From a virus (taxonomy: Duplodnaviria > Caudoviricetes): DNA of 64,000 bases. The notes below the pieces were generated by a model, which was not told the DNA's origin, made no database searches, and saw nothing but the letters and a program-made list of their open reading frames with translations. Shown piece by piece: positions 36,163 to 63,247 of the stretch; the stretch's first letter is position 1; every line of letters begins with the position of its first letter. The DNA lies in IMG/VR virus record IMGVR_UViG_3300048598_000163, positions 1 through 64,000 of that record; one strand, 5' to 3'. The position numbers and the translations under genes are program-made.

Positions 36163-37267
36163 AGAGTTTCAGAACAGCACGCCTTGGCATCCGCTGATCC
36201 TCGCTGGTTCGAAGGCTCGGCAGATTTTTTATTATCGTGTATGTAGGCAATGCCTTGTAGAGAATCGAATAGGCTGTTTCAGCCGCCGGCGGATTCGTGA
36301 TCCATACAACCTTATTTGTCCCGGCAAGAATAAAATCGATTTCGGGATAATACTCCTTTACCGTAGTAAATATGCGCTCTATCGATTCGACGAAAAAGGC
36401 ACTGATGGTATCTTCCGCCCCTTCTTTTCTGATCAGAACCTCTTTTGCAAGAGTGCTTCCTGACAGGACGGTAATTACGTCTCCCTCTCCTATGTCGCAG
36501 CAGTAAGGAGCCGTTAAGACAGCATCGCCACCCGCCGTTTCGATCATCTTTGATTCAACGTCGTTAAAGCCCTGGGAAAGAATTACAAATTTATTCGGCT
36601 CTAACCATTTCACGTCGGTTGCCTTCAGGGATCCTTTTTGAACAATTTCAGCACCGGTTAACGAATCTGTCAGCCTAAGCCGAACCATATCCATTCGATA
36701 TTCAAGAACCTCGAATTCCTTTTCGTCGTCCTTCACCGTGCATGACAGAATATCGCCCGGAGCAGTATATACGACGGATTGGATCGTAGAGGATTCAGAA
36801 CGGCACCCTGGTACCCGAAAGAAACCGCCTCCCAAGGAAACGAGCGCAACGGAATCGATCTTATTTTCCCTGGAATACGATGTTTCGACGGCAACATAAT
36901 CGTCCGCCCCGGTCGCCTTTTCTCCGAATTTGAGATACCTCCCGTATTTCGTGAAAGGTATTGAAACCCCGTTGTAATAAACAGCTTTAACGTCTCCATC
37001 CGAGCGCTCGGATAGAACAACTGCACCGTCTTTGTCCACGGGTAGCGTGTTTATTCTTCGTTCTTCCTTTTGGTGGCTGTAAATAATCCCAGTTCCGCCA
37101 CAAAGAGGGCATCGAATATCAGGTTGATTCCCGTCGCCGGTTACACACGAGCATTTCATTGACGTTCTCCATCGGACATATTGCCCATGGCGTTCAATCA
37201 GCGCTTCATAGTTTTCCTTTCCGAGCTTGAGTTTTACGGGTGAATCAAAACCGAGGCCGTATGTCAT
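36119..37267 (-). CDS. Head closure / neck protein
   Basis: LIERHGQYVRW...KCSC...CPLCGGTGIIY. Confidence 0.65.
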   Translation of the reverse strand: MTYGLGFDSPVKLKLGKENYEALIERHGQYVRWRTSMKCSCVTGDGNQPDIRCPLCGGTGIIYSHQKEERRINTLPVDKDGAVVLSERSDGDVKAVYYNGVSIPFTKYGRYLKFGEKATGADDYVAVETSYSRENKIDSVALVSLGGGFFRVPGCRSESSTIQSVVYTAPGDILSCTVKDDEKEFEVLEYRMDMVRLRLTDSLTGAEIVQKGSLKATDVKWLEPNKFVILSQGFNDVESKMIETAGGDAVLTAPYCCDIGEGDVITVLSGSTLAKEVLIRKEGAEDTISAFFVESIERIFTTVKEYYPEIDFILAGTNKVVWITNPPAAETAYSILYKALPTYTIIKNLPSLRTSEDQRMPRRAVLKLFAAFKEGRRINQND

Positions 37268-37875
37268 ACCGCGATCTCCTCGTGCAGGAAAGGTCTTGCT
37301 TCGTTCCCGATTCTTACAACCGGGAAGCCCCTCTTTGAAAAACCTTCAACGACTCCGATCTTTTTTCCGACGCTCACCGAAACTCCTTTCTTGAGCTTGA
37401 GCATGGCGTTTTTCCGGGTGCTGATAGATGAAACAAGGCGATCTGTTTTCTCGTTGTACTCTTTCTGCAAATCGCTTGCCTGTTCTGGCTTATCGGCCAT
37501 AAGTTTGAGGTACCATGCTGTTTGAAAATCAGCTTCGATGTCCTTGTCCCGCGTGTCACGGTCGAATTTATAGTTCTGGTATTTCGTTTCAATGCGCTGC
37601 GCAAGCGCCGGATCATACATCGCGAATTTGGATACCAGCGGCTTGATCTGATAATCTACCGAACCCCGGTCAAGGTGATCGAAATACCCACGGTTATCAC
37701 TCCGCTGTTTCATATCGTCGTTGGAAAATAAATCAACCTGCCCTTTGTTTTTGCCACTGTTTCGATCTTCCGGGGATACCCAATAAGTCATCTCGCGCCC
37801 ATCGGCGCGAACCTTTTTTTCAGGTATGAGTTTCCCATAGTCTTTCGCTTTCAGAAGAAGTACTGGCGCGTTCAT
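37264..37875 (-). CDS. Hypothetical protein carrying the shared head-cargo N-terminal module
   Basis: LLKA...KKVRADGREMTYWVSP...QVDLF. Confidence 0.65.
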   Translation of the reverse strand: MNAPVLLLKAKDYGKLIPEKKVRADGREMTYWVSPEDRNSGKNKGQVDLFSNDDMKQRSDNRGYFDHLDRGSVDYQIKPLVSKFAMYDPALAQRIETKYQNYKFDRDTRDKDIEADFQTAWYLKLMADKPEQASDLQKEYNEKTDRLVSSISTRKNAMLKLKKGVSVSVGKKIGVVEGFSKRGFPVVRIGNEARPFLHEEIAV

Positions 37876-38777
37876 GAGGCACGCTCCATGAACTCTTTAT
37901 CCGTCATGGTACCTTTATGGAGGTTGCACGACGGGCAGCTTATCGCGAGGTTATTCTTTTCGTTTTTCCCGCCACGGATAAGAGGAATCTTGTGCTCAAG
38001 GTGGTATTTTTCTTGAATTGGGTCTTTGCAGTAAACGCATGTGAGGGCGCCGTACAGCACAATATTCTCGCTCTCGACTTCCTGTACTACTTTTGAAGAG
38101 AGTCTACCGGCGTTTCGTTCGAGAACACGCCTGTTGGCACTTTTCTGTTTGGTGTGACGCCTACCCTTTTCGGTTTTATACCAGTTTTTTACGAGCTGGG
38201 AGTGATGCTCCTTATGCCTCTCAACCCAGTCTTTTTGTCCGGCTTTTACTTTTTCCGGATTCTGTATAGCCCAACCAGAACGATATCCGTCATATCGTTT
38301 TTTGGTTTCGGGGTCACTCATATATTTCGCCCATCTTTTTTTATAGATATCAGGATCTGCGGTGTATTCTCTCTTACGTTTTTCGTTTCTACATTTAACG
38401 CAATTTTCAGTATATCCATCGAGTGTTTGTTTACTTTTATAGAAATTGCAAATTGGTAAAACCTGTTTGCAGGAACAGCACCTTTTCTCCGTTATTTCAG
38501 GCTTTTCCATTTGCTTTACAGTATGAATATACTCTTTGTGCCTAATACTCGCGCAAGAACGGCAGACGGTGTTTCTTCCATCTTTATTGGCAATATTCTT
38601 GGTGAATTCCTCGATAGGCTTTTCAACACCACATTTCCCGCAAACCTTACTCGCGGGAACGTCTTTCTTTATCTTGAGACAGTCCTTGCACGGCTGACGT
38701 ATTCCGCATCTGTTGCGCGAGTCAGAGAAAAATGCAAACTTTTCTTTTTCAGCTCCACAGCACGTACACACTGCCAT
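37872..38777 (-). CDS. HNH endonuclease with tandem CxxC zinc-finger repeats
   Basis: CVYC...HLEHKIPLIRGGKNEKNNLAISCPSCNLHKG; three KxCxxC...KDG...CxxC repeats. Confidence 0.88.
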   Translation of the reverse strand: MAVCTCCGAEKEKFAFFSDSRNRCGIRQPCKDCLKIKKDVPASKVCGKCGVEKPIEEFTKNIANKDGRNTVCRSCASIRHKEYIHTVKQMEKPEITEKRCCSCKQVLPICNFYKSKQTLDGYTENCVKCRNEKRKREYTADPDIYKKRWAKYMSDPETKKRYDGYRSGWAIQNPEKVKAGQKDWVERHKEHHSQLVKNWYKTEKGRRHTKQKSANRRVLERNAGRLSSKVVQEVESENIVLYGALTCVYCKDPIQEKYHLEHKIPLIRGGKNEKNNLAISCPSCNLHKGTMTDKEFMERAS

Positions 38778-39898: not shown

Positions 39899-40296
39899 AC
39901 CTTCTCGTATCCGGGCACTTTCAGGAGCTGCTCGAGATCATCGGAGTCGGGTGTTGCAAGGCCGTCCGCGTCGAATTCAACGGGCTTCCCTGTGACAGCA
40001 TAGACCGATTTCCCAGCCATTGCCACGTTGCGCACCTGTCCTGTTTTCTCGGATCCTTCGCCCTTGTTCTGAACAGTAGTGTCAGAAGATGCCTTCTGGG
40101 CATTGGCGGTTTCGACAGGTTCCGTCGTAGGGATATCGCCGACAGAGACCTTCTCGGCGGATTCACTGGCCGGCGGATTCTCATCAAGCTCGGAGGTATC
40201 CTCGGTAGATTCACTGGCCGCCGGCTGACTCTCGTCAGGTCTTGCGGTATCGACGGGTTCGGTTGTTTCAGCGTCAGTTTTTTTTGCTTTTGCCAT
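39895..40296 (-). CDS. Acidic hypothetical protein
   Basis: 133 aa ORF in head operon. Confidence 0.6.
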   Translation of the reverse strand: MAKAKKTDAETTEPVDTARPDESQPAASESTEDTSELDENPPASESAEKVSVGDIPTTEPVETANAQKASSDTTVQNKGEGSEKTGQVRNVAMAGKSVYAVTGKPVEFDADGLATPDSDDLEQLLKVPGYEKV

Positions 40297-40311
40297 TTAC
40301 GTGCTCCTTGA

Positions 40312-40497
40312 TCAGAGGGGGTCGACGTTGGCCGAAGTGACTACGTTTGTAGTATCGGCCACCGTATGAGTTCCAGCACAATGAGCATTGTGATCTGCCT
40401 TCAATTCATTAATCAGCGTAAATGCTGCCGCAAGCTGATCTGCAAGTTTCTTAAGCGCCGGGCAGGCGCCTTTCAAATCGTCTTTCTTCATGGGCAT
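40312..40497 (-). CDS. Small hypothetical virion protein
   Basis: 61 aa ORF with GGAAGAGG RBS after capsid gene. Confidence 0.55.
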   Translation of the reverse strand: MPMKKDDLKGACPALKKLADQLAAAFTLINELKADHNAHCAGTHTVADTTNVVTSANVDPL

Positions 40498-40511
40498 ACA
40501 ACCTCTTCCAT

Positions 40512-40543: not shown

Positions 40544-40551
40544 CAAGCGGA

Positions 40552-41967
40552 TTAGTTCAAGAACCCGTCGTTGGTGTATCCGATGTTCTTGACAACACCG
40601 TGATACCACGGGACCTTGACGTCCGGAGTACCGAAGAGAACGATCAGGAACGGGGTTACCGCGGCCCTGGTCGGGTACAGATCGAACTTCATCAGAGGAA
40701 GGAACTGGTCGAACTGCGCACTCGGCTCGATTGCATCGTGCGAGAGGTACAGAATCGAACCGGTACCAGGAAGATCGTCCTGCTGATCAAGGTGAGTCTT
40801 GGTTGCGGCAGATCCGATACCAATACGAACCATCTCGCGCATATCGGTTCCGGATCCATCCTTCTTCGATCGGGTGATGATGTATCCGGACCCCTTTATT
40901 GTGCCGGGAGTGATCACGATCTTCACTTCCTGTCCGGCCGCTACGGCAACGGATGCGGCAGCAGCTCCCTCGGAAATACCGTATGCGTTTATCGCGTGGA
41001 CGGCGTAAAAGTACGTTCCGGCTTCTGCGGTAACGAATCCAGGGCCACCGCCGGCAGTAAGGGTCTGTGCGGTAAGAGCAAAGGTAGGCGCAGAGGGGCG
41101 TTTATTCGCATCACCGCTCGCGGAAATCTTTCCTTTGACGTGGAACATCTTGTCGGGTCCGGCTTCTTTACCAGCAATCTTGATGTCGCCGGAGAAGGTA
41201 GTCGGGTACTCGAGAACCACGCGGCCGCCCTTGGTGTCATTTTCTCCAAATCGAAGGCGATCCCTGGCGAGTTTCTGGAAGTCGGACGCGATAACGGACG
41301 GCATAAACGCATGAGAGAGGCTTCCGCCGTTGTCAAACACCATCTGCGCGATGTTGTTGATGGATTCCTCGCCAGCCGCGTCGCTCATCTTCGCGCCACG
41401 AAGGTCTACGAGGTTGCGACGCGATGCGTTTGACACAACCTGCTTGAGCACGCTGTCAAACTGCTGCGGTACGACCTCGCTGTCGGCCTGGAACATACCG
41501 AACTCAAGTCCTTTGAGAACGGTGAGGGTTCCTGCCAGCTTTTCAGACGCCATCGCGTCTTCGAGGGTTTTTGCCACCTGCATCTGCAGCGTTACCTCGC
41601 GGTAGGTCTGCATGAACTTCATGGGCTTGGTTACGCGCTCGATCGCCTGATCGGTGTCCCCGGCCTCACCGCCCTCGTCGGCGAAGATATTCATGTGCTC
41701 GCCGGCGTCGTTACGACGGGTGTACTCATGAACGGTCGAGCCGACTTTCTGGGTTTTGAGGAGATTGGTCAGCTTGAAGTCTTCCTGCTTCGCGGCCATA
41801 GCATTGACCATGCTCATCTCGATATCCTCGGGCATGAGCGCACGGCCACCGGTAAACTGCGAGGAATCGGTTCCGGATCCAGCGGAGAGGGCTTTCTGGA
41901 GCTCTCCTTCGCTTACGGTTCCGAATACCGTGTCGCCAGCCCTTGTCGGGTTAAGGAAATCACTCAT
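40552..41967 (-). CDS. Major capsid protein (SPO1/Twort-like)
   Basis: LQKALSAGSGTDSSQFTGGRAL, VGSTVHEY, GTLTVLKGLEFGMFQADS, FDSVLKQV, LMKFDL motifs. Confidence 0.9.
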   Translation of the reverse strand: MSDFLNPTRAGDTVFGTVSEGELQKALSAGSGTDSSQFTGGRALMPEDIEMSMVNAMAAKQEDFKLTNLLKTQKVGSTVHEYTRRNDAGEHMNIFADEGGEAGDTDQAIERVTKPMKFMQTYREVTLQMQVAKTLEDAMASEKLAGTLTVLKGLEFGMFQADSEVVPQQFDSVLKQVVSNASRRNLVDLRGAKMSDAAGEESINNIAQMVFDNGGSLSHAFMPSVIASDFQKLARDRLRFGENDTKGGRVVLEYPTTFSGDIKIAGKEAGPDKMFHVKGKISASGDANKRPSAPTFALTAQTLTAGGGPGFVTAEAGTYFYAVHAINAYGISEGAAAASVAVAAGQEVKIVITPGTIKGSGYIITRSKKDGSGTDMREMVRIGIGSAATKTHLDQQDDLPGTGSILYLSHDAIEPSAQFDQFLPLMKFDLYPTRAAVTPFLIVLFGTPDVKVPWYHGVVKNIGYTNDGFLN

Positions 41968-41985: not shown

Positions 41986-43422
41986 TTATTTGAGCAGCTG
42001 AATCTGTTCAGCTGACAGCGGGAGCGACTTGTTGAGGCGTTCTTCGATAGCGCCCGCCTGCACAAGGTCCATTTTTCCGGATGCGATAAGCTCCTGGGAT
42101 TTCTTCAGGACTTCGGAACGGGTCATAACGACATCCTTGTCCTTGTCCTTGAAGCGAATCTGGGAATTCACGATGGCCTGACGCGGAGCGGGGGTGTCAC
42201 CGATGGACTTCACCATCTGGGCGGTCGCCAAGATTGCACCGCCCATGCTTTTCTGCAGAGAAACCATGCCGTTGACCTGCCGCTCGATCGCGGCCATTCT
42301 GTTGGAAATGCTCTTGGTGAGAGTGTCGAGGAACGGGGCGACATCGAGGAAATCCCCGGCGTTTTCGCGTACATCGTCATAAAGGGACTTTTCGAGGGTT
42401 TTATCCTTCGATTTGTCTTTCTTTCCGGCGGGCTCACCCTCGCCGTTTTCGTCTTCCACGCCTTCGCCTTCGTCATTTTCGCCGGCACCGGTTTCGGGGT
42501 CTGCGGAAAGACTCTGTTCGGGCGGGAAGTCGTTCATTCCTTCGCGGGCGGCTTCTTTGGGTTTCGCCTTAAGTGACTTTTCGAGAGACGCGGTCGTCTC
42601 GTCAAAAGCCTTCAACAGATTTGCGTCCATTGATACTTCCTCCTTCATCTTGTCTTTGTTTGCTATGATATTCCGCAGAATGTTGTCCGCCTCTTCAGGC
42701 GAACACCCGCGGTTTTTCAAGAATTGTTTTATGTCGTCCTCGTCCTTGAAGTCTTTATAGGCCATACCCATCACGACGGCGTATTGATCGGGCTTTCGGT
42801 CATGTTCGACATCCTGCAGAATCATGGCACGGCCGCCGGTCATAGCCGACGAATCGGTACCAAGGCCGGCCTGCAACGACTTCACGAAGGCGGCACCGGA
42901 CAGCGCAACCGGGTCAAGGGTTTGGTTTACCGGCTTGAAGGTAATAGCGATCTCGTCCCAGAGAACGGCCACGACGGCTTCGATCATCTTTCCGAGCTTC
43001 TGGCTGTAGGTTTTTTCCACTTGCGGCATTTTACCGCCAACGGATATATGAAGCGTTTTTGCGCCGGCTTTCAGTTTCTTGATGATTTCCTGGGCTGACT
43101 CAACGGTTGAATAAAGCTTTCCTTTGACGAAAGTTCGATTTCCTTTGGTTCGCACTTCGAGCGGTTCCCCGATGATGTATTTCTCGGGATTCCAGTGCGG
43201 GTCAAGCGGATCAGGCTTGAGGTGCTTGTGGTCGTATGACACAACCCCGTTCGCGAGGAAGTAGTCTTTCGATGCAATGAGCGCTTCCTGCAGAACTACC
43301 TGGCCATCAAAGTCAAGATTCTCATTGGACGCTTCTGCCTCGAAGATGACATTCCCGCTTTCATCGGTTTCGATCGATTTTGACAATCGGAGTTCAAGGT
43401 ATATACGATCCTGATTTACCAT
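41986..43422 (-). CDS. Prohead protease with C-terminal scaffold domain
   Basis: FEAEASNENLDFDGQVV, VSYDHKH (His), LHISVGG (Ser), AITFKPVN; acidic linker and coiled C-terminus. Confidence 0.85.
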   Translation of the reverse strand: MVNQDRIYLELRLSKSIETDESGNVIFEAEASNENLDFDGQVVLQEALIASKDYFLANGVVSYDHKHLKPDPLDPHWNPEKYIIGEPLEVRTKGNRTFVKGKLYSTVESAQEIIKKLKAGAKTLHISVGGKMPQVEKTYSQKLGKMIEAVVAVLWDEIAITFKPVNQTLDPVALSGAAFVKSLQAGLGTDSSAMTGGRAMILQDVEHDRKPDQYAVVMGMAYKDFKDEDDIKQFLKNRGCSPEEADNILRNIIANKDKMKEEVSMDANLLKAFDETTASLEKSLKAKPKEAAREGMNDFPPEQSLSADPETGAGENDEGEGVEDENGEGEPAGKKDKSKDKTLEKSLYDDVRENAGDFLDVAPFLDTLTKSISNRMAAIERQVNGMVSLQKSMGGAILATAQMVKSIGDTPAPRQAIVNSQIRFKDKDKDVVMTRSEVLKKSQELIASGKMDLVQAGAIEERLNKSLPLSAEQIQLLK

Positions 43423-46700: not shown

Positions 46701-48740
46701 CGGGTGGATCATCTTGTCCATGCCGGTAATCGTGGCAACCTTCTGCCCGTTCCCGAGCACCTGAATATCATAATCGCCCTTGTCCAGCCCGAGCGCGCGC
46801 ATACGGATTATCGCTTCCTCGTTCGATATGTCGCCCATGCTCACCTCGAGGCTTTCCGGGTCTTTCGTCCCTTTCAGCTCGAGCACCATGGCGGCGGAAG
46901 ATTCAAGGCTTCCGAGAGTCTGTCCGAGAATCCTATTCGCTTCATCAAGATACCCCAGGCGATCGCTGTTGAGCTCTGCCAGCACGGCAATATCATCAGG
47001 TTTAGCCTCAATTTCTGCCTTCAGCCCCTCGGCTTTCGCTATCAGGTCCTTTGCGCTATTGATCGCGTCGGAGGCCAAGGTTTCATTCATAGCTTCGTGA
47101 TATTTCTCCATCCCCGCGGCAAAATCGGCATAATCCTCCGGGGATAGGCTCCGTCGGGCGGTCATGGCAAGCAGTTTCGCACTGGCGCCGACGCCCAGGA
47201 TATCAACCGTATCGCGGTCAAGACCCTCATTTTTGAGAGCGGACAGCGCTATCGAGTTGAATCCGGCGTAGTTTCCGTTCGCGATCCACTTCTCTACTCC
47301 GCCGGGATTCTTGTCGATCGCGTCGAGAAGCGAAGAATGGATCGCCGCCTGCCGTTCGGTTTTTACCCGTTCGCCCTCGTCGGCAAGATCCTTGTCGAGC
47401 AATTCAGTATAGTCGAGCTTCACCCCGTTGCCGTAGGTAAGGTCCTCAACCGACGCCTCGGCTTCGTCCGCCGTCCCGTCAAGGTTGATTTGCTTTTCCT
47501 TTCCAGAATCATCCCCATCAAGCTCGTTCAGTTTCGCCTTGAGTTCGAGATACTTCTTGAGGATTTCAGCCTGCTCGTCTATCTCAGTTATCGGCCTTGT
47601 AGGGAGGTCTTCTTTGGTATAGTTGTCGTTCTTGATCTGGTTTATGAACTTGTTCGACTCAATCCCGCCCTTTATCATGTTCGCAAGCCCGGGGTTGTCC
47701 TGGGAGATTTCCTTTATCCTTTTATCGAAAAGCTCTGCCTTTTCGTTCGCAAGCGTCTCGGGGTCAAGGCTTCCTTTTTTCTCGGCGCTTTCCCTATACC
47801 CGGTCACGAATCCTTTTCCTTTCGATCCGTTCTCTGTACGGATAAGACCGTCGGCCTGGACCTTTTCGCCTATGGCCGCCTCTACCTGCTCGCGCACATC
47901 CCTGTCGGCTATCAATCCACGCTGGATTTGCTTGACGGTCTCTTTTGCGGCCGTCAGGACATTTCCGCGCTGACTCTTCAAGGCTCGGTCTCGTGCCTTG
48001 ATGGTTGCATCGAGCTCACGCTCAATTATTTTGGTCTCGGCGCCGTCGTCTGTATCTTCAAGCTTCGCGCGTAATTTCTGTATTTCGTCGTCAAAGTCCT
48101 CGCCGATGTTCGCCGGCTCCCAGTGGAATTTGGACGCCATGAAGTCGTTGAATTCGTCGATCGCCTGCGCGCGCTGCGCTTTCTTTTCACTTTCAGCGGC
48201 CACGGCCGCTTGCTTCTGTGCCTTTTGGTCTGCTTTCACCTGGGTGCGCTGCTCTTTCGTCATGGCGGCCATTTCCTGCTGCTTGCGGAGTTTTTCTTCA
48301 GCCTGCTTGACCTTTTTCTCCTCCCGACGCTGGTCCTGAACCTTCTGGTATTCGTCTTTGCTTTTGATCTTGTTGAGTTTTAGCCCGTTCAGCTTACCTC
48401 CCGCGCCGGCGATGACGTGTGCCGTTCCTTTATCCCCTCCCTCCTGGATGAGAAGGGGGGTTCCTTCTGCGCTAGGACCATTCGGGTGAACGGTTATCCA
48501 ACGAGAGCCAGACGGCAGCGCTGCGGCCTTCTTTGCCTTCGGCGTGGCGGGCATGTTCGGAGATTCCGATTTCTGCAAGCGAATATACTCGTTCGCCAGG
48601 CGCAACGACTTTTGCATTGCAAGCGTTTCACGGATCGAAAGCTCGGTATACTCTCCCGGCTCGACGTTCAGCACGCCGGTGCTCTTGAGCAATTCCAGGT
48701 CTCTGTCGGTGTAAATATAGCCTTCGATTCTTGAAAACAT
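43776..48740 (-). CDS. Giant SF2 (SNF2-like) helicase-domain protein, putative head cargo (likely start ATG 48740)
   Basis: FGTGKGKT Walker A, TTDEAH, QTATPVKN, SDAGATGLNLQ, QREGRIDRMGQ; RBS AAGGAGG. Confidence 0.85.
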   Translation of the reverse strand: MFSRIEGYIYTDRDLELLKSTGVLNVEPGEYTELSIRETLAMQKSLRLANEYIRLQKSESPNMPATPKAKKAAALPSGSRWITVHPNGPSAEGTPLLIQEGGDKGTAHVIAGAGGKLNGLKLNKIKSKDEYQKVQDQRREEKKVKQAEEKLRKQQEMAAMTKEQRTQVKADQKAQKQAAVAAESEKKAQRAQAIDEFNDFMASKFHWEPANIGEDFDDEIQKLRAKLEDTDDGAETKIIERELDATIKARDRALKSQRGNVLTAAKETVKQIQRGLIADRDVREQVEAAIGEKVQADGLIRTENGSKGKGFVTGYRESAEKKGSLDPETLANEKAELFDKRIKEISQDNPGLANMIKGGIESNKFINQIKNDNYTKEDLPTRPITEIDEQAEILKKYLELKAKLNELDGDDSGKEKQINLDGTADEAEASVEDLTYGNGVKLDYTELLDKDLADEGERVKTERQAAIHSSLLDAIDKNPGGVEKWIANGNYAGFNSIALSALKNEGLDRDTVDILGVGASAKLLAMTARRSLSPEDYADFAAGMEKYHEAMNETLASDAINSAKDLIAKAEGLKAEIEAKPDDIAVLAELNSDRLGYLDEANRILGQTLGSLESSAAMVLELKGTKDPESLEVSMGDISNEEAIIRMRALGLDKGDYDIQVLGNGQKVATITGMDKMIHPVDAEEIRLENEIDAIKAGLRDEPGWMPAGLVDRNAPDYQDPGPDTSMPEGGIDNQSLGDDALSIKRTEEAAHRALGELPEGCFAFKDIGDLSPAEQTDLRRYWEKNIYAGSMAADTASQGLSTGEKGISRAAAWQKYVKGQNGGSEDAAYENIKADLIQNYSTEDMFGEKDIPKLARVVPGDYSTYRANVDGAAELFDEIDSLRDPSLVTDAKDAEKEVAKLEAALPGKLDEMFKSQMRDHFLKNMAGYTADQYAAGETRQEKSPWGEYVRMHGDVSHAQEAVIDRIKGDYTERFLKHYTKLTGKKPQTRTEKIRNADDHVLGMLHKDVRDSYTDRFKREMGEAGGSLANRNNGRFSSGSWKDKFKEYESQKKAEEAKQVDMFSDPADLKQNDGTEIVSLGKRAQGQLASMIPQLSRNQLRGQKFKVNTMTAAGTRERSIKMLEASKRMNLTFGTGKGKTIISIGAFTDLKAQGKAKRAVFAVPSVVLSQFGNEVNTFCVPGKYQIKSDPTLDRDHRIQAMKDGNNDMCIFTHQSLRDDMIYLMAKNNSMDAEAMKEHFNGLTEPERKKMLGDTLAKEGVKFDMMTTDEAHYITNREGKPDTTLSNVMDALNQNCEYYMAQTATPVKNDASEAFDMLHKVAPDRFTDRNEFMKRYGVDTQFNRRSLQRLINRYNYASPTVTGVKKNFHKEMISLEGRQKEAYDKVGEMFRRASKASRAGSVDIEAMQYLSPNSFKGKSEDEYEGIAKNLQESVGTIKEEALNRVVNQFDWHDNAKIKRTMDIIDTKRYESPNEKTASKVGDLKPGVIFAHNIQTVDNLRAAMEAKGMRVGIIQGAMTGQDKEKVKVGFNPPNPAERIYDVILCSDAGATGLNLQNAGYLMNFDLPQTAWVKTQREGRIDRMGQAHSEIDYHDIVSDTEHEATKWDRIQRKKALGSIFEEDPGVLDDTGLASHIANARQERYNNGNENEPARSAA

Positions 48741-48784
48741 GGCAAAGCCTCCTTGCGGCATTATTTATTGACTATTATTTGACG

Positions 48785-50504: not shown

Positions 50505-52162
50505 TGCACCGCCTTCAGCATTTCGTCGTTTTCCTGGAAAAATCGGTCAATGAGCGGCTGAACCTTTTCGGCAAACACTGCTTGACGAGGATGATTGCCG
50601 GCGCTGTTCCATTCCTTCTGGTACTCTTCTACCGTATCGGTCTTCGTCGCGAAATACTGCTCAAGAGCCCGCGCAAAGCACTCGCACGTCCTGTTCTGGT
50701 AGTCGCTCTTCTGTGGCCGATCCATGTTTTCACGGAATGACCGGGCAATGCTTCCAGGCAAGGACGCCCAATCATCGGAGGCATAGGTATGCCGATCGCC
50801 GATCGAGCCGAGGTAGTTATCCATGAAATGAGCCCATTCATGGGCAAGCGTGAAGCCAAAACCCTTGTCGCCGTATTTCGCCGTAACGCCTATCGCGTGA
50901 TAGTACGGAAAATAAATACCGCTTGCGTTCCGCGCGTGCTGCAGGACCTTCCCGGAATGGCTTATTTTCAGGCCGAATTTCCGGGCCATGCTCGACCGGT
51001 TCCCATAAATATCATAGAGCGTGTCGAGCGCTTCCTTGATCTGGTTCACTTCCGGTACAGATATTGGATCGCCATTCTGCCGTTTAACCAACACGCCGTA
51101 TTCATCGAATAGGTCTTTTCGGGTTCCCTTGTCGCCGTAGGCGGTAGACCGGCCCTTCCCATGCGTTGATATATCCTCTTCCATCTGGATGTTCAGGTCT
51201 GCCAGCTTTTGTTTCATATCAGCAATCGCATCCCTTACAGGGATCCAGCTCGCCCCTTTCGAAAATCGCTCACTTGAGGCGTTCAGGACGGCGTGCGTGG
51301 CTTTATTTTCCGACAACATGCGGATTGACGGCTTCCGGACGCGGCGCCCGGGGTTTCTTTCAACCAGATCGTCATAGGCTTTCTGTGCTCTCGCCTTCGC
51401 ACGCTTCATATAATAATCCTGCATGACTGCAAGCAAGTCGGCATTTACCCGATACGAATCACCGACTCTGGCAAGCACGATGTAGTCGTTCTCTTTTACC
51501 TTCAGAGCCTCTATCCGGTTTCCCGCGGAGGAGAACGATTCGTCTGACAGGCGCGGCATCCATTCAGGCCTTTCTCTCTCCATTATTCCTTTTGCGGGAA
51601 TGAGTCCGATCTTCAGCGGAACAACGTCGCGATAGTCCATGTAGGCATGGCCGCTCTCTTTGAGATAGGCGGGTTTGAATTCGTATTTCTCCGGTGGCGC
51701 CTCGACCATATCAGCGCCGAAAATAGCCGCCTGTGCCGCCGGTCTGGTTTCTGCGGTAACTCCGTTTATTATGTCGGCTATTTTTTCGGGCTTGGTCTCC
51801 GGAAGAATCATGGTGATCTGTTCGGGTGCCACGGTATTCATCATCTGCCCGGAAAGAATCTTGTATTCCCCGCGCATGAAGTATCTCACCTCGCCCGATA
51901 GCTCGACGCCGTGCTTGTCCTTGTATTGAACACGCGTCCCGTTCCCTACGTTCTCGAGAACCTTCTCGCGCCAATCGTGTTCCGCCTCGGCGAAAAGATC
52001 GAATTGGACATCGCTGACCGGATCTTCGGTTTTAGCCTGTACGGGAAGTACCCATACAGTGGTCTGATATGCCTTTCCGTCTCGCGTTACTGTAATGAGT
52101 TTTGGCACAAGCCGTGGGTTTTTTCGCTGTGCTTTCTCAAGCACCGGCAGGATAAAGTACAT
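50498..52162 (-). CDS. Polyvalent protein with zincin metallopeptidase / LPD1-like C-terminus
   Basis: FTLAHEWAHFMD (HExxH) followed by ECFARALEQY. Confidence 0.7.
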   Translation of the reverse strand: MYFILPVLEKAQRKNPRLVPKLITVTRDGKAYQTTVWVLPVQAKTEDPVSDVQFDLFAEAEHDWREKVLENVGNGTRVQYKDKHGVELSGEVRYFMRGEYKILSGQMMNTVAPEQITMILPETKPEKIADIINGVTAETRPAAQAAIFGADMVEAPPEKYEFKPAYLKESGHAYMDYRDVVPLKIGLIPAKGIMERERPEWMPRLSDESFSSAGNRIEALKVKENDYIVLARVGDSYRVNADLLAVMQDYYMKRAKARAQKAYDDLVERNPGRRVRKPSIRMLSENKATHAVLNASSERFSKGASWIPVRDAIADMKQKLADLNIQMEEDISTHGKGRSTAYGDKGTRKDLFDEYGVLVKRQNGDPISVPEVNQIKEALDTLYDIYGNRSSMARKFGLKISHSGKVLQHARNASGIYFPYYHAIGVTAKYGDKGFGFTLAHEWAHFMDNYLGSIGDRHTYASDDWASLPGSIARSFRENMDRPQKSDYQNRTCECFARALEQYFATKTDTVEEYQKEWNSAGNHPRQAVFAEKVQPLIDRFFQENDEMLKAVQW

Positions 52163-52492: not shown

Positions 52493-54391
52493 TCAAGTGT
52501 TGTATTCGGAAATAAGTTTCGGCTCTTCACCTTTGGCAACATTATTATCCCTGAAACTCCATGCGTCCGCGTGCTTTTTTACAGCCTCGAACGTCGCCTC
52601 GTTTCCAATATTTTCCAGAACGACCTTTACCGGAACGTACCGCTTCGTTTTTCCCATGAAACGAGATATTGCGCGCTTCGCCGCTTCCTGGCGCGGTAGG
52701 TGCATATAGTGGGCTTCGATCCTATACCCTGACTTTTTGAACCGTTCCACTTTCTTCAACGCAGACGCTTCAGTCTTCATGGTTGCATCCAGAACAACAT
52801 TAAGCCCCTTGTTGAGCGCAAATGAAAGGATTTTCTCCAGGATGTCGCTCGACTCCTCGTGCACCTGGGAAGCATTGAATCCCTCATATTCTGGAAGCAT
52901 TGCCTTTATCTCATCAGCATCGAGTACGATCGCTTTCTCTGGATCGTATACCTTTCCCTTGAACCATGATTTTCCAGACCCGCCGCGACCGCCAAGCATG
53001 GTGAAGGTTGGGCGTTTACCCTCTTCCGGTTTAGCGGAAGCGATACGCTCTGGGGAAAGTATTTCGCTGAATATTTTCTGATGGATTTTCTTTCTTTCGT
53101 CGTCGTATATAGCGTCTGACCCCTCCCCTGTAATGCGGTGCGTGGCAATGGTTTGCTCGAGTCGTTTCAATCGTACCTGCGTTACTTCAATCGCCTTCTT
53201 TATCTCGCCAGCATCGTCACCGAAACTACCGATAATACTTTCCGGCGTGGCATCCGGTTCGTCCCACTCCTTTTTCCATTCGTCCGCGTTGAACTTCTCG
53301 GGTTCGATAAAGTCTTTCCCGTCTCCCTGCTGCTCGTCGGTATCGGCACCGCCCGGGCGCTTTCCGCCGCCGGACGCCCCCGCTTCAAGCCGTTTCGCGC
53401 CGTCGGCGCCCCTGAATCCGGTAATATCCTTCCAAGGGACCGGGAATTTATCGCCGGCGGCGTCCTTTACGACTACCCCGTCGTCACATCCGTCGTCAAT
53501 GACAGTTCCCATCATCGATTTGCCTCGGAAGGAGAAGGCTACCTGGTCGCCGTTCTGTATATTGTGCATACCGTAACCGGCCGCCGCGCCCCGCGTGTCT
53601 TCCGGGTCTTTTGTGCCTGCTCCCGGCATTGATCCGCCGGCCTCGTCTGGCCGAACCCATTTATTCTGCTTGAAAGTGCGCCCGCCGCGGTTAACATCTA
53701 CCTGTTTACGGACAAGACGGCCGGTGTTGAGAGACTTTTGCATGGAATCCGTAATCCCAATACCGAGTGCTTTCCCCTGGACCGATTTCGATATCCCGAG
53801 GGCAAGCTTAACCTGTTTCATGTCGGTTTTTTTCTGAAGGTCTACGTTCTCGAATACAGACACAATGCGCAGCTTACCGTCACGCATACCCACTCCGACA
53901 TTGAGCGACTGTTGCCAGTCGCCTCCTACCGCGAAATAAACTACGTCCTTTCCGAGCCTGATGATATCGCAATTCTCAAGATCGACCCCTTTCGGGAATC
54001 CATCAAGGGCCTTCAGCTTATAGCCGTTTCTTCCGGAGTACAGCCGGCCTTCATTGTCGCCAAATACTTTTTTGAACGCATCGTAGAATTTCTGGTCGAT
54101 GTCGGCCGGGACCGATTTACGCAGGCCGAGCTTTTTCACCTCGGCGCGCGCGGCCGGTTCATCAATAAGCCCGGCGTGATTCAGTTTTTCGTAGTATTTT
54201 GGGTCTTCCTGAAGGTGGTCTCGGGCGATATGCGCCGCAACGTCCACGTCTTTGGTATGCTCCATTTCCACCTTGATCCCGACGGAAAGCTCTTCCGGAT
54301 ATCGCCGCTCAATGAGCTTGTCCAACCGGGTTTTTCCGCGTTTCAATCCGTTATCATCGGAATCGACGCTCTTCCACATTCGTAATTCCAT
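52493..54391 (-). CDS. Multidomain protein with C-terminal zeta-toxin-like P-loop kinase
   Basis: GGRGGSGKS Walker A, VLDADEIK, LNVVLDATM, AISRF; N-terminal GIKVEMEHT...IARDHL.EDPKYYEKL domain. Confidence 0.8.
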   Translation of the reverse strand: MELRMWKSVDSDDNGLKRGKTRLDKLIERRYPEELSVGIKVEMEHTKDVDVAAHIARDHLQEDPKYYEKLNHAGLIDEPAARAEVKKLGLRKSVPADIDQKFYDAFKKVFGDNEGRLYSGRNGYKLKALDGFPKGVDLENCDIIRLGKDVVYFAVGGDWQQSLNVGVGMRDGKLRIVSVFENVDLQKKTDMKQVKLALGISKSVQGKALGIGITDSMQKSLNTGRLVRKQVDVNRGGRTFKQNKWVRPDEAGGSMPGAGTKDPEDTRGAAAGYGMHNIQNGDQVAFSFRGKSMMGTVIDDGCDDGVVVKDAAGDKFPVPWKDITGFRGADGAKRLEAGASGGGKRPGGADTDEQQGDGKDFIEPEKFNADEWKKEWDEPDATPESIIGSFGDDAGEIKKAIEVTQVRLKRLEQTIATHRITGEGSDAIYDDERKKIHQKIFSEILSPERIASAKPEEGKRPTFTMLGGRGGSGKSWFKGKVYDPEKAIVLDADEIKAMLPEYEGFNASQVHEESSDILEKILSFALNKGLNVVLDATMKTEASALKKVERFKKSGYRIEAHYMHLPRQEAAKRAISRFMGKTKRYVPVKVVLENIGNEATFEAVKKHADAWSFRDNNVAKGEEPKLISEYNT

Positions 54392-54405: not shown

Positions 54406-54792
54406 TTACATACCCGCGTTCTCGTCGAACAGGGTGTAGTCGTGATCAACTCCATCGTTATCGGTCCATTCGTGGTCGCTCGTGTGCGTCATCTGCCCCG
54501 AATGGTAATACGCCCCGGCAAGAACGGAGCGGAAAAGATCACCATGCCAGGCATTTTCCCTCATCCACTCGTCGAAGTATGAACCCGCGAACCAGTCGCC
54601 GGGCTTTGCCGCGTATTTCTGAAGGGCTTCTTTCACAGCCCACCAGTAAACACCGAAGGTTTTATACAGGATAGGGTTGTCGCGGAGCAGCGGAGCGACA
54701 GCTTCGGCGTATTTACTCAAATAGGCCTCGCCGCCTTCGGTTTCGAGATTTTCCACAAGGCCGTCGACAAATTCGTTATCGTAGTATCCCAT
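54406..54792 (-). CDS. Acidic hypothetical protein upstream of zeta-like gene
   Basis: 128 aa ORF overlapping the end of the DarB-like gene. Confidence 0.65.
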   Translation of the reverse strand: MGYYDNEFVDGLVENLETEGGEAYLSKYAEAVAPLLRDNPILYKTFGVYWWAVKEALQKYAAKPGDWFAGSYFDEWMRENAWHGDLFRSVLAGAYYHSGQMTHTSDHEWTDNDGVDHDYTLFDENAGM

Positions 54793-60700: not shown

Positions 60701-61003
60701 GTTGACGGGCACCTGCCCGGGTGTTTCATTAACTTGGTTTACGTTATTGGTTTTCAGGCCCATTTTCGGGGCCTTTTTGACCGGTTCAGCGGCCACGGCC
60801 GGCGCGGAATCGTCCCCGAAAAGATCGAATTGAGCCGATGTTACCGCCCCTGCTTTCGCCTCATTGGGAAGAACCCACGCCTTTTTCTGAAAGGTAGTCC
60901 CGTCCTTGTTCGTAACGGTAATCATTTTCATGACAAGCTTCGGGCTGCGGGACTTCTCAAGGACCTGCCGTACAGGAAGAAAGAATCTGGTAAACGCGTT
61001 CAT
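54776..61003 (-). CDS. DarB-like N6-adenine methyltransferase + SF2 helicase fusion (2075 aa)
   Basis: FYTSPPVA, ALEPSCGTGVF (motif I), VVGNAPFG (motif IV variant), LGTGFGKT, FVDEAH, LTATPLTNS, TMGEGVNLQ, QRNGRIDRQGN. Confidence 0.9.
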   Translation of the reverse strand: MNAFTRFFLPVRQVLEKSRSPKLVMKMITVTNKDGTTFQKKAWVLPNEAKAGAVTSAQFDLFGDDSAPAVAAEPVKKAPKMGLKTNNVNQVNETPGQVPVNAHTGQVSAPKLGIVSVPNTGKKQNLTEYVVGGIYAGDEGIAGPWRGIYAGKGVFELTKVTEATPYNVGDLFKPTMPDTIEFAGRKAGYKPPKAAMINANSTMTEIMDARDEAHENGKAGTESMMEKLIHERLGEDRKPDPIDREVAKELQPAAYNTPKKQDRIYDTDGENRHPRTIVADANGDHWMELNSQDGVIEAVPITDGVPDMANAWHFKLKDELVFETGLTWNGKEEVSSSIESVDGIHDLGRSIVDTPFRDYGSWAASGKGLNPKARAELNKEVAGLLLKPRNELTDEDREKIRKYSGFGGIQADDERGVLYDFYTSPPVAKMTWQMLAKVAPIKLGGAALEPSCGTGVFFDVAPSDMSLQGVELDTRTAAAASILQGEADIATGSFEQFNLTNDRKFDHVVGNAPFGDRTIATSFMDMPEEKSLDRYFLSRSMDKLNAGGTMGMIVHPGVMDAKGNRDWRADMLKKGQFMGAVRLPDKSFKHTQTQVQPDILFFRKYPDEVANRLAQLDEDGLKAAGFWNEGWVEGSYYDAKPAHILGEKQEGAGNWGRDVISGDLTLSGMDDAVSTFTPEPDAGIQQLETLRSMTTDAAPKKESKDTALLTPEEAEAVAAKSLTPGMTKSIYGKLYRLNTNHRWERVIGSNEEAAEKVEKVKAIAAKVKQIRDAMQNGEPVDDLQANTRELIQLYTESYGSAPDDDKDIKRVLNANRSLAGVYEGLVKIDDNVLTMQNIYHKEIDIVDGHNPAITALMTLGRNHIDATPESLTQYFPNGIDDLLAEMKANLDVFLTTEGVYQLREDFIAGNAWEKIDALQEAISARSGHQWDDEVAKWKHGIAELEKAAGWVPIEDADYMPQSSWIPEEIIDKWVKDDDGLGRGYVFGPGTGGNGFYRYKTPEKFFCRNEEGKWGIRDGENGDWHEEADETVYYLNSQKQRSQRIDTAAYNQRADDSFKNWVATTPDVRAQLETLYNKMFNGEIGAPTKTYSIKIDGWNPDIVIQPWQWQTIHHLYRNGKGISALGTGFGKTYAGIALMALLRQEGLIKRPMLQVPNNKVKDWVKYIGKAMPGLKVGAMDPETEGYGNQVKRYKMYQDLANGDYDVIILPETSASEIQLRPENDEAITSSIVAEQTMEKTAGKSARKNETAKESAKKKLENGKTNQTINFEDLGVDAIFVDEAHRNKNLFTSSLSRETGLNDGRRSERAMSLFKKNEYIRRNHDGKNVFFLTATPLTNSPLEYYNMLMHVAPEELTKLGIKNIDGFIKNFADIRVEQKCDWSTGSVKEGNVLKGFKNLRTLQDMFFKYTDLQNDPTKIGLKKPKADNHPNVIPMQADQTAELKSLSEELEKFKNMSKEDRAESHQNYLTFYSRMRTASLDLELYDPVRFKGWRNEKLETLVRNAADSYNATGGGQVIFCDRVVSGDGTFNLHDKIKKSLIAQGFKESDIIVVNGVTKAGGKKSDEAVGREVSAAIDGYNKGKYKVIVGTTQTMGEGVNLQKNSAALHHFDIPYRPSDFIQRNGRIDRQGNAQGQVALHTYMSAGTIDNYSVGLVQGKANWIDQLLKTKSNVFVNPNDDSYVDPDELMLALTEEWGDKDKANERRAEMNRKKEGAIKETNQNKVHDLLASLSMMRGAVKSYSGDKGTIQYQNRVRKIQNIEESLRANPEFKNLDIISAKNPDFIYDKVNRKVYQPGDVFCNRFGVYKIRAINHKNNEIAFEIIHSFENHYSHKEKMLEWTVGKDFPTGTQGMTYLKKPTASDIEKQAAIYKPDSFVAQDGDFKRDNYRKYIEAAATGTYFVKEPDGSVKIEAKNSYGNGISKETVVLNPYDPAQRKEIDEAMAKKDKMPYLYGHKDEDPVNIDSGATRHIQDFSRKEYRAWKGSGVVDAHASNSWKVISTILGEVNKATGESLSEYDLKHKIEDNPDYEVEHEPVGPHGSHELVYRKKKMEKSIYDGFRVPKIGIMVNRSVKYGILR

Positions 61004-62289
61004 TTAGATACCTCCACGTTGTAAATCTCATTGATGCGGTCAAGATAGCCGGGCGTTGAGTCGTTCAACTTGCGCGTGCCCTTGGACCGGAATTCCGCTT
61101 CCGCCTGCTTGCAGGCCTTCGCCCACGCTTCCTCGCGATCCTTCATCTTGGCAAGCGCGGCGTTCACGGCGTCGTCTTTTTTCCCGGGCGGCAGCCATTT
61201 CGTCCATATACCGCGGCAATACGGGTGCTGGCTTCCCGCCGCTACCCATTCCTCTGACGCTTTCATGCCTACGCGGCTCTTTCCTTCCCATATCGCTATT
61301 TTCGCGTAAGGGTCGTCTATCTTCTCGTCGTCGAGCGGCACGTCAGACCAGCGAGCCACAAGCCCGTTGATCTTTTTGCAGTGCGCGCAGGTCACGCCGT
61401 CGATTATTTCCATTCTCTGAAAGTAAAGCGGGGCCCCGTCCGGGGTGATCGAGCGCTCCGACACCATCATGGCGTTATTCATTGCGTCATTGGTCTCGGT
61501 TTCTACTATCCGCTTCCAGTCACGATTCAGGTCACCGAATTTGTCGAACAGATCCTGCGCTATCTCGCCTTTCGTTTTCCGTTCTTTGATTCCGTTCAGG
61601 AAAACCTTCTTGATGGCCCCCCTGGTTTCATCGGTCACCTTCGTGATGTGTTCCGCGCACAATTCCTGGGCTACGGCCATTCGGTCCATTTCTTCGTCGG
61701 CAACCTTGAAGAGCTTCCGGTAGTTTTCCTCGCCCGAGAACTCGCCGGCCTTCCATTTCTGGTATTCAAGCTCTTCGTACCGGGCCTGCCGGACGGCATC
61801 CCATGTGTTGTACTTGAGCATCCGGTCGAGAACCTTTCCGAGAGCCGAAGAATCGAGAACGATCCGGTCACTGGCATTGGCGACCTTCCGGTTCAAGAAA
61901 TCCTCAACGGCCTTTATGAAGTCCTTCCACTGTTTCCGCGTGATTGGCTTACCGGTTTCAGGCGCATAGAGAATTTTCCCTTTATAGATGAGCGGATCGG
62001 AGCCGCGCGCCTTGCTGAATGTCGTCACCCTTGGGAGGTCGAACGTATTGCAGCACGTATTGTAGATGAGGTCGAGCAGCCCCGCATAGAAATAGATCCA
62101 CTGATTCACGAGGTCTTCGTATGCCTGGAAAGGAAACTTCTCGCCGTTCTCCTTGTCGGGGTCTTTGCGGCGCAGGGTAACAGGCAGATCGAGCGCTTTC
62201 GCGAGTGCATCGGAAGCAGCAAGAAACTTCTCTTTCCTGTTCGCTTCCGTGATTGCTGTCACCGTTATCTTTATATCCTTCATTACCAC
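61000..62289 (-). CDS. MuF / SPP1 gp7-like head morphogenesis protein
   Basis: RDWKRIVETET...TCAHC...HPYCRG; follows portal. Confidence 0.8.
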   Translation of the reverse strand: MVMKDIKITVTAITEANRKEKFLAASDALAKALDLPVTLRRKDPDKENGEKFPFQAYEDLVNQWIYFYAGLLDLIYNTCCNTFDLPRVTTFSKARGSDPLIYKGKILYAPETGKPITRKQWKDFIKAVEDFLNRKVANASDRIVLDSSALGKVLDRMLKYNTWDAVRQARYEELEYQKWKAGEFSGEENYRKLFKVADEEMDRMAVAQELCAEHITKVTDETRGAIKKVFLNGIKERKTKGEIAQDLFDKFGDLNRDWKRIVETETNDAMNNAMMVSERSITPDGAPLYFQRMEIIDGVTCAHCKKINGLVARWSDVPLDDEKIDDPYAKIAIWEGKSRVGMKASEEWVAAGSQHPYCRGIWTKWLPPGKKDDAVNAALAKMKDREEAWAKACKQAEAEFRSKGTRKLNDSTPGYLDRINEIYNVEVSK

Positions 62290-62290
62290 G

Positions 62291-63247
62291 TTACCGCCCC
62301 AGCTTCAGATTCCGAATAAAAAGGCCGATTGATTTTTTCAGCGGCTTTTTGTCTGAAAATGCCTCCATCTTTGCAACGAGGGCTTTGGTCTTTTCAGGAT
62401 CGTCGGTATTGACCATGAACTCCCACTTATCGCATCCCGGCTTCTTCACTTCGAGCGAAACGCCATTCGCGCGCCAAAGGGGCTCATGCCCTCCGTTTAA
62501 CGCGTGCTCATCGCGTGAGCCACGCGTGCCCTTCGCGTGAAATACTTCATCTATCGCATTGGCAACGGCGTACGTGTCAGGGTACTTACCGCCGTGCAGC
62601 TTGTGGTTTTTCATCATGGAGAACGCTTCACGTACTTCATACAAGGCGCTCGTGGTGTCTATTGCTCTTTTCTCAATCGCGCTTGCCAGGTCGTATGTCG
62701 TTTTGAACAGGTCCCCGTGATAGGTGAAGTTCCGGACTTCGTTCAGGGCTGAATATGCGTCCTTGAGGATTTCCGGCCCTTTGATACGACCGCGCGGGTC
62801 TCCGGGTGATTTACCGTCGCCGCCCGTGCTGGCCGCCGGTTCATCACTATTCTCGAAAATGTTCTTGTCCCGACCGCCCTGAACGCTCGCCGCTATCTGC
62901 GCGGCCGTGGGCAATTCCTTTCCCGCCTGCGTCCCCCATTCAACCGTACCGTTTTCATCCTCGAGATATACAAAACCGTCACGCAGCTTGACCGAGAGGT
63001 CTTTGCCGTCGAGCGTTATCTTGTCGCCGTTCTTTACCGGCCGAGAGGCGACTTGTTTTGCTCCAACCTCTTCCATATCGAAAAGAGACCCTTGCGGAGT
63101 CCCTTCAGTCTTTTTCTCTTCAGGATCGACCCAGAAGGTCATCTGGAACGCCTTTCCGCCACGGGTAACGGTTCTCTTTACCGGAACCAATCGGCCGCCC
63201 TTTTGAGACTTTTCCAACACGTCGCTCTTGATCTGAACTACCAGCAT
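62291..63247 (-). CDS. Hypothetical protein carrying the shared head-cargo module (likely start MLVVQ at 63247)
   Basis: VLEKSQKGGRLVPVKRTVTRGGKAFQMTFWVDP; GGGAGG RBS. Confidence 0.7.
   Translation of the reverse strand: MLVVQIKSDVLEKSQKGGRLVPVKRTVTRGGKAFQMTFWVDPEEKKTEGTPQGSLFDMEEVGAKQVASRPVKNGDKITLDGKDLSVKLRDGFVYLEDENGTVEWGTQAGKELPTAAQIAASVQGGRDKNIFENSDEPAASTGGDGKSPGDPRGRIKGPEILKDAYSALNEVRNFTYHGDLFKTTYDLASAIEKRAIDTTSALYEVREAFSMMKNHKLHGGKYPDTYAVANAIDEVFHAKGTRGSRDEHALNGGHEPLWRANGVSLEVKKPGCDKWEFMVNTDDPEKTKALVAKMEAFSDKKPLKKSIGLFIRNLKLGR
62500..62539. repeat. Iteron array D: four (A/T)CGCGTG units at 11-bp period inside a late gene
   Basis: Units at 62500, 62511, 62522, 62533. Confidence 0.7.

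Follow-up and report, generated by a model that had tools for sequence, protein, structure and literature searches.

A leader-and-hairpin module shared by putative capsid cargo proteins of a phage with an SPO1-type major capsid protein

In phage T4, a capsid targeting sequence (CTS) loads internal cargo into the head and the protease gp21 cuts after the motif I/LxE, as stated in PMC12991175, which cites Mullaney & Black 1996. In phage P1, the first 30 residues of DarB were shown experimentally to be a capsid targeting signal that is sufficient to load a reporter; the Dar proteins of P1 have no N-terminal consensus in common, and the capsid protein is cut after Glu120 (PMC9024508). For polyvalent proteins, autoprocessing by a zincin-like metallopeptidase is proposed by Iyer, Burroughs, Anand, de Souza and Aravind (2017; PMC5512222). 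Outside T4, P1 and the giant phages, little is known about the way in which polyvalent proteins and other injected anti-defence enzymes get into capsids and are processed. Here we analyse a module of about 40 residues that occurs six times in a stretch of 64,000 nucleotides (the window; positions 1 to 64,000 of the IMG/VR virus record IMGVR_UViG_3300048598_000163, Caudoviricetes). We put the probability at about 0.6 that the module is a composite cargo tag resembling the T4 CTS, with a Lys-specific cut, in a lineage with SPO1-type capsids and a gp21-like protease. It would then be a functional analogue of the T4 CTS/gp21 system, the closest one known, and not a member of that system by sequence or by cleavage specificity.

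The module consists of a moderately hydrophobic leader of ~10-13 residues, an invariant h-x-K|A/S motif (h, hydrophobic; the bar marks the predicted cut), a basic β-hairpin and often Q-x-D-L-F some ten residues further on. All six copies were confirmed on the minus strand, where the coordinates in the preliminary description of this DNA had placed them. Copy 1 lies in the protein g333 (residues 19-60; 63113..63238) and comprises leader, LEK|S, hairpin and WVDP. Copy 2 is found at the N-terminus of a DarB-like methylase-helicase (residues 8-49; 60857..60982) and copy 3 in the interior of g632, between a DUF5661 region and a Zeta-toxin kinase (residues 213-251; 53639..53755). Copies 4 and 5 begin the proteins g554 (residues 1-43; 52034..52162) and g394 (residues 1-42; 50379..50504), the latter upstream of ART-PolyVal and InPase domains. 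The divergent copy 6 begins g203 (residues 1-38; 37762..37875), whose gene is located downstream of the capsid gene among neck genes. Five of the six copies thus sit near the N-terminus, within the first 30 residues.

A hidden Markov model (HMM) of the six copies, run against the six-frame translation of the whole 78.5-kb genome, returned just these six (55-77 bits; runner-up 4.6 bits). With leave-one-out HMMs, five copies were recovered at E 2e-16 to 5e-7 (1.9e-16, 5e-7, 1.7e-8, 4e-13 and 1.9e-10 for copies 1 to 5), which rules out a chance repeat. The g203 copy scored E 0.26 in the same procedure, yet it was the best-ranked non-member, and an HMM built without g203 picked up the g203 orthologues of two related phages, at E 7.6e-6 and 1.7e-4, respectively; we therefore count it as a divergent member. 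The claim that the six proteins are otherwise unrelated held: blastp detected no similarity among them outside the module (E > 0.3), and the domains that follow it are all different, namely ART-PolyVal and InPase in g394, DUF5661 and a Zeta toxin in g632, N6-MTase and an SNF2 helicase in the DarB-like protein and phrog_22901 in g554. Scans of family libraries recognised no domain beyond the module in g333 and g203.

The profile search proposed in the preliminary description, which had taken the module for a portable β-hairpin, was run with the six copies against 1.84 billion representative proteins. It matched 261 protein clusters at E ≤ 1e-3, 35 of them at E ≤ 1e-10. The best 150 of these 261 matches contained 192 copies; a copy started within the first 30 residues in 103 of the 150 proteins, and 35 of them had two or three copies. 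The module is thus portable, mostly N-terminal and also found at the joints of polyvalent proteins. Among the 192 copies, no aligned one was without the Lys, which was followed at P1' by Ala (71-73%) or Ser (~20%), and P3 was hydrophobic in 96-100%. In stand-alone genes the Lys was mostly residue 10-13. The consensus reads [LIM]-E-K-[AS]-x4-[KGR]-L-V-P-K-K-V-T-V-T-R-x-G-K-T-F-Q-x-T-V-W-V-x-P, in which LVPKKVTVTR-GG-KTFQTTVWVxP has the pattern of a basic two-stranded β-hairpin with a mean net charge of +5.2 in its core. An AlphaFold2 prediction for residues 1-71 of g554, made from a 44-row alignment, agreed with the hairpin assignment: it gave a single β-hairpin (strands 19-27 and 30-38; predicted local distance difference test (pLDDT) ~88) and a disordered remainder.

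No family for the module was found in Pfam (module alone, E ≤ 10) or in NCBIfam (carrier proteins, E ≤ 0.1), and PHROGs gave partial matches only, inside the larger families 1917, 25452 and 27103. A sequence profile search of the PDB returned nothing significant; β-hairpins from ribosomal protein uS5 and from a designed protein, at E 0.6-1, were not used. The ESM Atlas gave no usable feature match, and structure matches on 40-50 residues were uninformative. Judging from these searches, the module is an undescribed sequence family, although the kind of system is already known from T4 and P1. A secretion signal or lipoprotein box was rejected from the sequence alone: the leader is short, the basic hairpin follows it and the genes belong to a head module.

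In 60 database proteins, the partner domains of the module formed the repertoire of phage-type polyvalent proteins, with InPase in 17, DUF5661 in 11 and Zeta, MuF_C and ART-PolyVal in 4 each, besides LPD1, RelA_SpoT, ParB, NUDIX, RadC, SAM lyase, HipA-like kinase and others. The module also marks the unit junctions of polyvalent proteins with InPase, ART, Zeta or MuF domains. Five IMG/VR contigs whose capsid protein is 69-79% identical to that of the window had four to seven copies each, and these relatives fuse or split the same units in various ways, each unit start carrying the module. In G001 and G002, the DUF5661 region, an extra unit, the g554 unit and the InPase unit are fused into proteins of 1281 and 1695 residues; G004 and G005 encode three-module proteins of 1500 and 1247 residues, and in G003 the Zeta unit is a separate gene with the module at its start.

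That relatives shuffle, fuse and split units exactly at the module would also be expected if it were a conserved recombination joint or linker of shuffled cassettes without a function of its own. We regard this as very improbable, since the protein sequence is kept across 261 clusters whose identity falls to as low as 25-50%, K, G, W and P are invariant and a structure is predicted, and such residues would not persist in a passive DNA joint under that divergence.

The link to head genes that had been drawn from the window was confirmed in every context read. A more distant contig (L035) has a head module ordered portal, MuF, cargo and helicase with six copies, one of them directly after the MuF domain, and a contig of a spirochaete metagenome-assembled genome (MAG; L036) has a head module arranged as in the window. 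Altogether, eight of eight readable contexts of the module family, including the window genome, the related contigs and Bacillus phage YungSlug, were head modules. A divergent copy is present in gp74 of YungSlug, a member of phrog_1917 ('virion structural protein'), an annotation that homologues in Enterococcus phages share. The g554 subfamily occurred in six contigs in IMG/VR and in a single contig of the genome collection, that of a spirochaete MAG, and the module was present in 1 of 301 genomes sampled from the spirochaete phylum. A tblastn search of 72,556 plasmids, of low sensitivity with its query of 71 residues, found no match for the module, and related-locus searches with P0098 and P0084 as queries found no relatives. 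We consider it likely that the tagged proteins are virion cargo.

Where else the Lys motif occurs suggests what it does. The genome encodes a head protease fused to the scaffold (478 residues; 41986..43422, minus strand; phrog_1028 and phrog_15087) with its protease domain in residues 1-181. The motif is found as FVK|S at the protease/scaffold boundary (42877..42888, minus strand), followed by a near copy of the N-arm of the mature capsid protein, and as LQK|A at the predicted maturation site K25|A26 of the capsid protein (41890..41901, minus strand), where YungSlug has DLNK|A and an A511-like phage EDALK|S. In five of five capsid proteins compared, the site lies at residues 23-26 (LQK|A in G000, G002 and G003; LLK|A in G004 and G005). 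The sequence ALSAGSGTDS..TGGRA stands behind the Lys site of the capsid protein and again behind AFVK|S where protease and scaffold meet. At full length, SLQAGLGTDSSAMTGGRA after AFVK|S (42800-42888, minus strand) is a near copy of ALSAGSGTDSSQFTGGRA after ELQK|A of the capsid protein (41810-41901, minus strand), and this near-copy is kept in all relatives that possess both genes.

The motif [LIMVF]-x-K-[SA] was five-fold enriched in the protease-scaffold (10 occurrences vs 2.1 expected from shuffles, p ≤ 0.003). It occurred 43 times in the head block vs 22 expected, and 44 times in the rest of the genome vs 43 expected. The scaffolds and proteases of Bordetella phage PHB04, Thermus phage Lalka8 and YungSlug contain h-x-K followed mostly by S, A or G, and the equivalent sites of their capsid proteins read ELQK|A, AFVK|A and DLNK|A, respectively. 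In Lalka8 K|A is used throughout, and the leader of the DarB-like protein ends in LLAK|A, that is, in the LLAKA pentapeptide of the phage's own scaffold. EDALK|S stands at residues 23/24 of the capsid protein in an A511-like Listeria phage, in keeping with the 23 residues that the A511 capsid protein reportedly loses and with the cleavage after Lys that the preliminary description gave for capsid proteins of the SPO1/A511 type. An AlphaFold2 model of the protease domain (residues 1-182) gave significant Foldseek matches only to T4 gp21 (5JBL, three chains; E 1e-4, template modelling score 0.54-0.58). These observations argue that the Lys motif is a head-protease site, which we regard as likely from the sequence comparison.

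Further evidence comes from the internal copies. A second h-x-K-[SA] was located 4-34 residues upstream in 31 of 64 internal copies, compared with a background of 11%, and the Lys-to-Lys distance at internal junctions peaked at 10-11 residues (e.g. LKK|S-IRLVIPVLEK|A). The spacer between the two sites therefore has the length and character of a stand-alone N-terminal leader. Conserved h-x-K sites were also seen near both ends of the portal protein, near the C-terminus of g333 and ~25 residues before that of the DarB-like protein; in every portal protein read, K|S/A stood ~13 residues before the end (K|S in four, K|A in one). The x-K-S/A sites quoted in the preliminary description were all present: LQKA (capsid protein), FVKS and LEKS (protease-scaffold) and, close to C-termini, MEKS (DarB-like protein) and LKKS (g333).

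The conserved K|S/A sites 13-25 residues before the C-termini belong to the DarB-like, g333 and portal genes (54776-54870, 62291-62340 and 63267-63310). Beyond them, the tails of the DarB-like protein, g333 and their homologues are basic-hydrophobic (SIGLFIRNLKLGR, PRLGIMRKEG, GKKLIVR), and those of the portal proteins are acidic. In fused relatives, the peptide equivalent to the C-terminal tail is the spacer before the next module.

The SNF2 helicase encoded in the same gene block (1661 residues) has no hairpin module. Its N-terminal 66 residues (48564..48761, minus strand) contain three h-x-K-S motifs, followed by RWITVHPNG. All relatives keep sites 1 and 2 as h-x-K-S/T, and site 3 is A/S/G or shifted. 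In the PHB04 helicase, ILFLK|AS immediately precedes the same RWITVHPNG motif. This N-terminal region of ~65 residues may be a second kind of cargo propeptide.

The position of the predicted cut bears on the function of the hairpin. The preliminary description had connected the module with a protease site. We retain this connection on the strength of the motif shared with the likely capsid maturation site, its enrichment in the scaffold and the gp21-like protease model, with the difference that the cut would precede the hairpin and remove only the leader. Its further proposal, that the hairpin itself is a tag removed by the protease as in the T4 CTS, is given up: a cut at the N-terminal edge of the hairpin would leave it on the mature cargo. 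For the same reason, the two roles that had been assigned to the hairpin, address and protease-removed tag, are incompatible.

An uncut hairpin could instead be the capsid address, docking by β-augmentation or charge on scaffold, MuF protein, portal or inner capsid, with L-x-K-A/S forming a docking surface. The hairpin is indeed the best-conserved part of the module (G28 97%, L17 93%, P39 90%, W36 82%), and an isolated hairpin without a domain of its own, as predicted by AlphaFold2, is what elements that need a partner for folding typically show. Leptospira phage LE1 (NVKYYKRE.KAKGGYRYWY) and PHB04 (V.GYTR.DGT.V.PYYR) have analogous basic hairpins behind the leader, and the scaffold and several cargo C-termini likewise end in h-x-K-S-h motifs. 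However, double sites 10-11 residues apart at internal junctions and a five-fold enrichment in the scaffolds of four lineages are better explained by cleavage, and the same motif stands where the related A511-type capsid protein is reportedly trimmed. We find this reading unlikely. Within the favoured cargo-tag reading, the narrower proposition that the hairpin and not the leader is the loading address is a tentative one, and we lean somewhat against it.

The cargo-tag reading, still a prediction, is well supported by comparison. As with the T4 CTS of IPI-III and Alt, a short N-terminal leader of ~10 residues stands on unrelated proteins predicted to be internal to the head. The leader ends in a motif that also occurs in the capsid and scaffold proteins, the likeness here being one of motif sharing only, the protease has a gp21-like fold model and the cargo includes an ADP-ribosyltransferase. 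Unlike in T4, P1 is Lys followed by Ala or Ser and not Glu, the sequence does not resemble that of the CTS, and behind the cut comes a conserved basic β-hairpin, frequently with QxDLF, that would remain on the cargo. The tag moreover punctuates multi-unit polyvalent proteins.

Many copies are followed, ~10 residues past the hairpin, by Q-x-[DSE]-L-F and then acidic residues. In the window this applies to four of the six: QGSLF stands 10 residues after copy 1 (63080..63094), QFDLF after copies 2 (60818..60832) and 4 (51992..52006) and QVDLF after copy 6 (37726..37740), all on the minus strand. At 4-17 residues after the module, the motif was present in 25 of 182 copies vs 2 of 1781 background windows, and in close relatives it followed 19 of 31 copies. 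The pentapeptide matches the consensus for binding to the bacterial β sliding clamp, which is reportedly QL[SD]LF; in the single copy modelled (g554) it falls in a region of low pLDDT.

This enrichment and the match to the clamp consensus raise another explanation, in which hairpin and QxDLF form a post-injection address for nucleic acid and the host clamp, the Lys site merely frees the units, and loading takes place otherwise (by the leader, MuF or another route). Similar motifs appear in another order directly after the leader Lys site in phages of distant hosts, as K|AQLALFD in PHB04 and K|AEQPALF in Lalka8, which suits a universal host partner better than it would a phage partner that co-evolves. 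The hairpin, moreover, is strongly basic and is retained internally and after MuF, and the phage seems to be without replisome genes of its own among the genes scanned. Yet two of the six copies (g394 and g632) are without QxDLF, a motif of five residues may serve many partners, and there is no known reason why an antirestriction enzyme of the DarB type should need the clamp. A morphogenetic tag would predict the near-exclusive position at N-termini and junctions together with the conserved Lys site. We judge a post-injection address unlikely, whether as a rival reading or as an additional one. The two ideas could be combined in a dual address, leader and Lys site loading and freeing the effector and the retained hairpin with QxDLF guiding it to the host sliding clamp or DNA; to this combination we likewise give low odds.

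Several points weigh against a T4-like cargo tag. The sequence family, the positions of its copies, the motif statistics and the fold model of the protease are results in themselves; from these we infer packaging, cleavage and the role of each element. The protease model is of moderate confidence (mean pLDDT 66, five sequences). The Lys motif is short and its enrichment within the cargo modest, with 6 occurrences vs 2.2 expected in g632 (p 0.017) and no significant excess in the others. The 'virion structural protein' label of phrog_1917 is an annotation that could not be traced to data. In YungSlug, the hairpin begins a PARP-like protein of 869 residues that is encoded just upstream of the portal gene and lacks both leader and Lys site, and in Lalka8 leader and hairpin are ~85 low-complexity residues apart; the two elements are thus separable, and the hairpin may serve another purpose. 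It is also kept after MuF and at internal positions, where a loading address should be redundant, which suggests a role for each freed unit. Through it, a unit might be retained on DNA or an acidic partner, leave together with the DNA, or act in the host. Finally, the experimentally defined signal of P1 does not resemble the module: we found no match in the whole P1 record, and the N-termini of the DarB proteins are unlike.

On balance, the tagged anti-host enzymes are probably packed in the capsid, trimmed by the head protease and injected with the DNA, as far as comparison can tell. Late in infection, the tagged proteins (DarB-like, ART and pyrophosphatase, Zeta-type kinase and others) would enter the procapsid together with the scaffold. 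The gp21-like protease would then degrade the scaffold, trim the capsid protein and cut the cargo after Lys, as it would in the capsid protein and at numerous places in the scaffold, with loss of the leader of ~10 residues. In fused polyvalent forms, cuts on both sides would excise the spacer of ~10 residues and free the units. The basic hairpin would stay at the new N-terminus of each mature unit and would probably tether it to an acidic partner or to the packaged DNA up to the moment of ejection.

The locus also resembles the P1 Dar system. The DarB-like protein of 2075 residues contains N6_Mtase, Eco57I, SNF2-rel_dom and Helicase_C domains and matched P1 darB in tblastn with 27% identity (E 3e-27). 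Directly after its gene, as in P1, is a Ulx-like antirestriction gene (54406..54792, minus strand; phrog_1629 'Ulx-like', E 1e-13). A DarB-like methylase with an SNF2-type helicase (~2000 residues) and a Ulx-like gene thus follow each other among head genes in both phages, and we conclude from this pair that the locus is a relative of the Dar system. Unlike in P1, one tag is common to all cargo here.

With the polyvalent proteins described by Iyer et al. 2017 (PMC5512222), the tagged proteins share ART-PolyVal, InPase, a Zeta-like kinase, MuF, LPD1 and the methylase-helicase dyad, a location beside virion genes and a predicted delivery with the DNA. They differ in that their units are headed or joined by a module with a site of the head-protease type and that no metallopeptidase domain was detected in them; a text-term search of that paper found no junction tag. 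Most units are also separate genes in this genome, in contrast to fused polyvalent proteins, and are fused to 1247-1695 residues in relatives.

Analogous tags were found in LE1 and PHB04. In both, DarB-like and other head-block proteins begin, right at the N-terminus, with a hydrophobic leader ending in h-x-K|G/A; after it comes a basic hairpin-like stretch with a Gly turn, and the capsid protein has h-x-K|S/A. The hairpin sequences are different ones, and the module HMM matched none of the LE1 proteins tested and did not rise above noise in the cargo N-termini of PHB04. Leader, Lys site and basic hairpin in combination therefore seem to be general in this capsid lineage, the present family being one branch. 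In LE1 (12528-12680 and 28000-28150), the DarB-like protein and gp26 share the tag IILNF[IL]KG.KGS.G.NVKYYKRE.KAKGGYRYWY, and the capsid protein reads NFMK|S.

A tag that heads each effector unit, separate or fused, gives a testable rule, namely that the head protease and not an embedded metallopeptidase separates the units. A profile search with the tag offers a handle for virion-delivered effectors in metagenomes, and, as a candidate portable address, the tag might serve to load foreign proteins into SPO1-type capsids. A further step after injection is hinted at by the hairpin that would be retained and by the look-alike of a clamp motif. If the dual address were true, it would amount to a common docking code for the injected anti-defence arsenal in the first seconds of infection, from Thermus to spirochaete phages.

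The window is part of a single-contig virus record of 78,511 bp, and the gene content is that of a temperate, myovirus-like phage. It includes an integrase-like gene, RecT, YqaJ, terminase, portal, a MuF-like protein, the fused protease-scaffold, the SPO1-type major capsid protein and a putative tail sheath, labelled so by position only. The order on the minus strand is TerL, portal, g333, MuF-like, DarB-like, Ulx-like, g632, g554 and g394, then the SNF2 helicase, protease-scaffold, capsid protein, neck genes including g203 and tail genes. The window holds the portal gene's C-terminal part (63267..64000, minus strand); the gene reaches 65057 in the genome. The MuF/SPP1 gp7-like minor head protein (61000..62289, minus strand) was assigned from library matches, and the SPO1/Herelleviridae-type major capsid protein (40552..41967, minus strand) from a match to the PDB entry 9VEL (chain named Gp6.1, E 5e-25).

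The integrase-like gene, which has an N-terminal SAM-like domain, RecT and the YqaJ exonuclease gene lie at 12714-13844, 3464-4501 and 6481-7488, respectively, and their presence makes a temperate phage probable. Among the related contigs of IMG/VR, one is classed as a provirus; there is also a close relative in a MAG labelled Spirochaetes. Between g373 and g203, a Cys-rich HNH/endonuclease VII-like gene of 301 residues is encoded at 37872-38777 (minus strand). Homologues of g373 and g203 are directly adjacent in G001, G002, G003 and G005, and the endonuclease gene looks like a mobile homing-type insertion. A reverse transcriptase gene (RVT_1, E 1e-19) at 17848-18867 (minus strand), beside unannotated genes that are tail- or fibre-like by position, is a candidate component of a diversity-generating retroelement.

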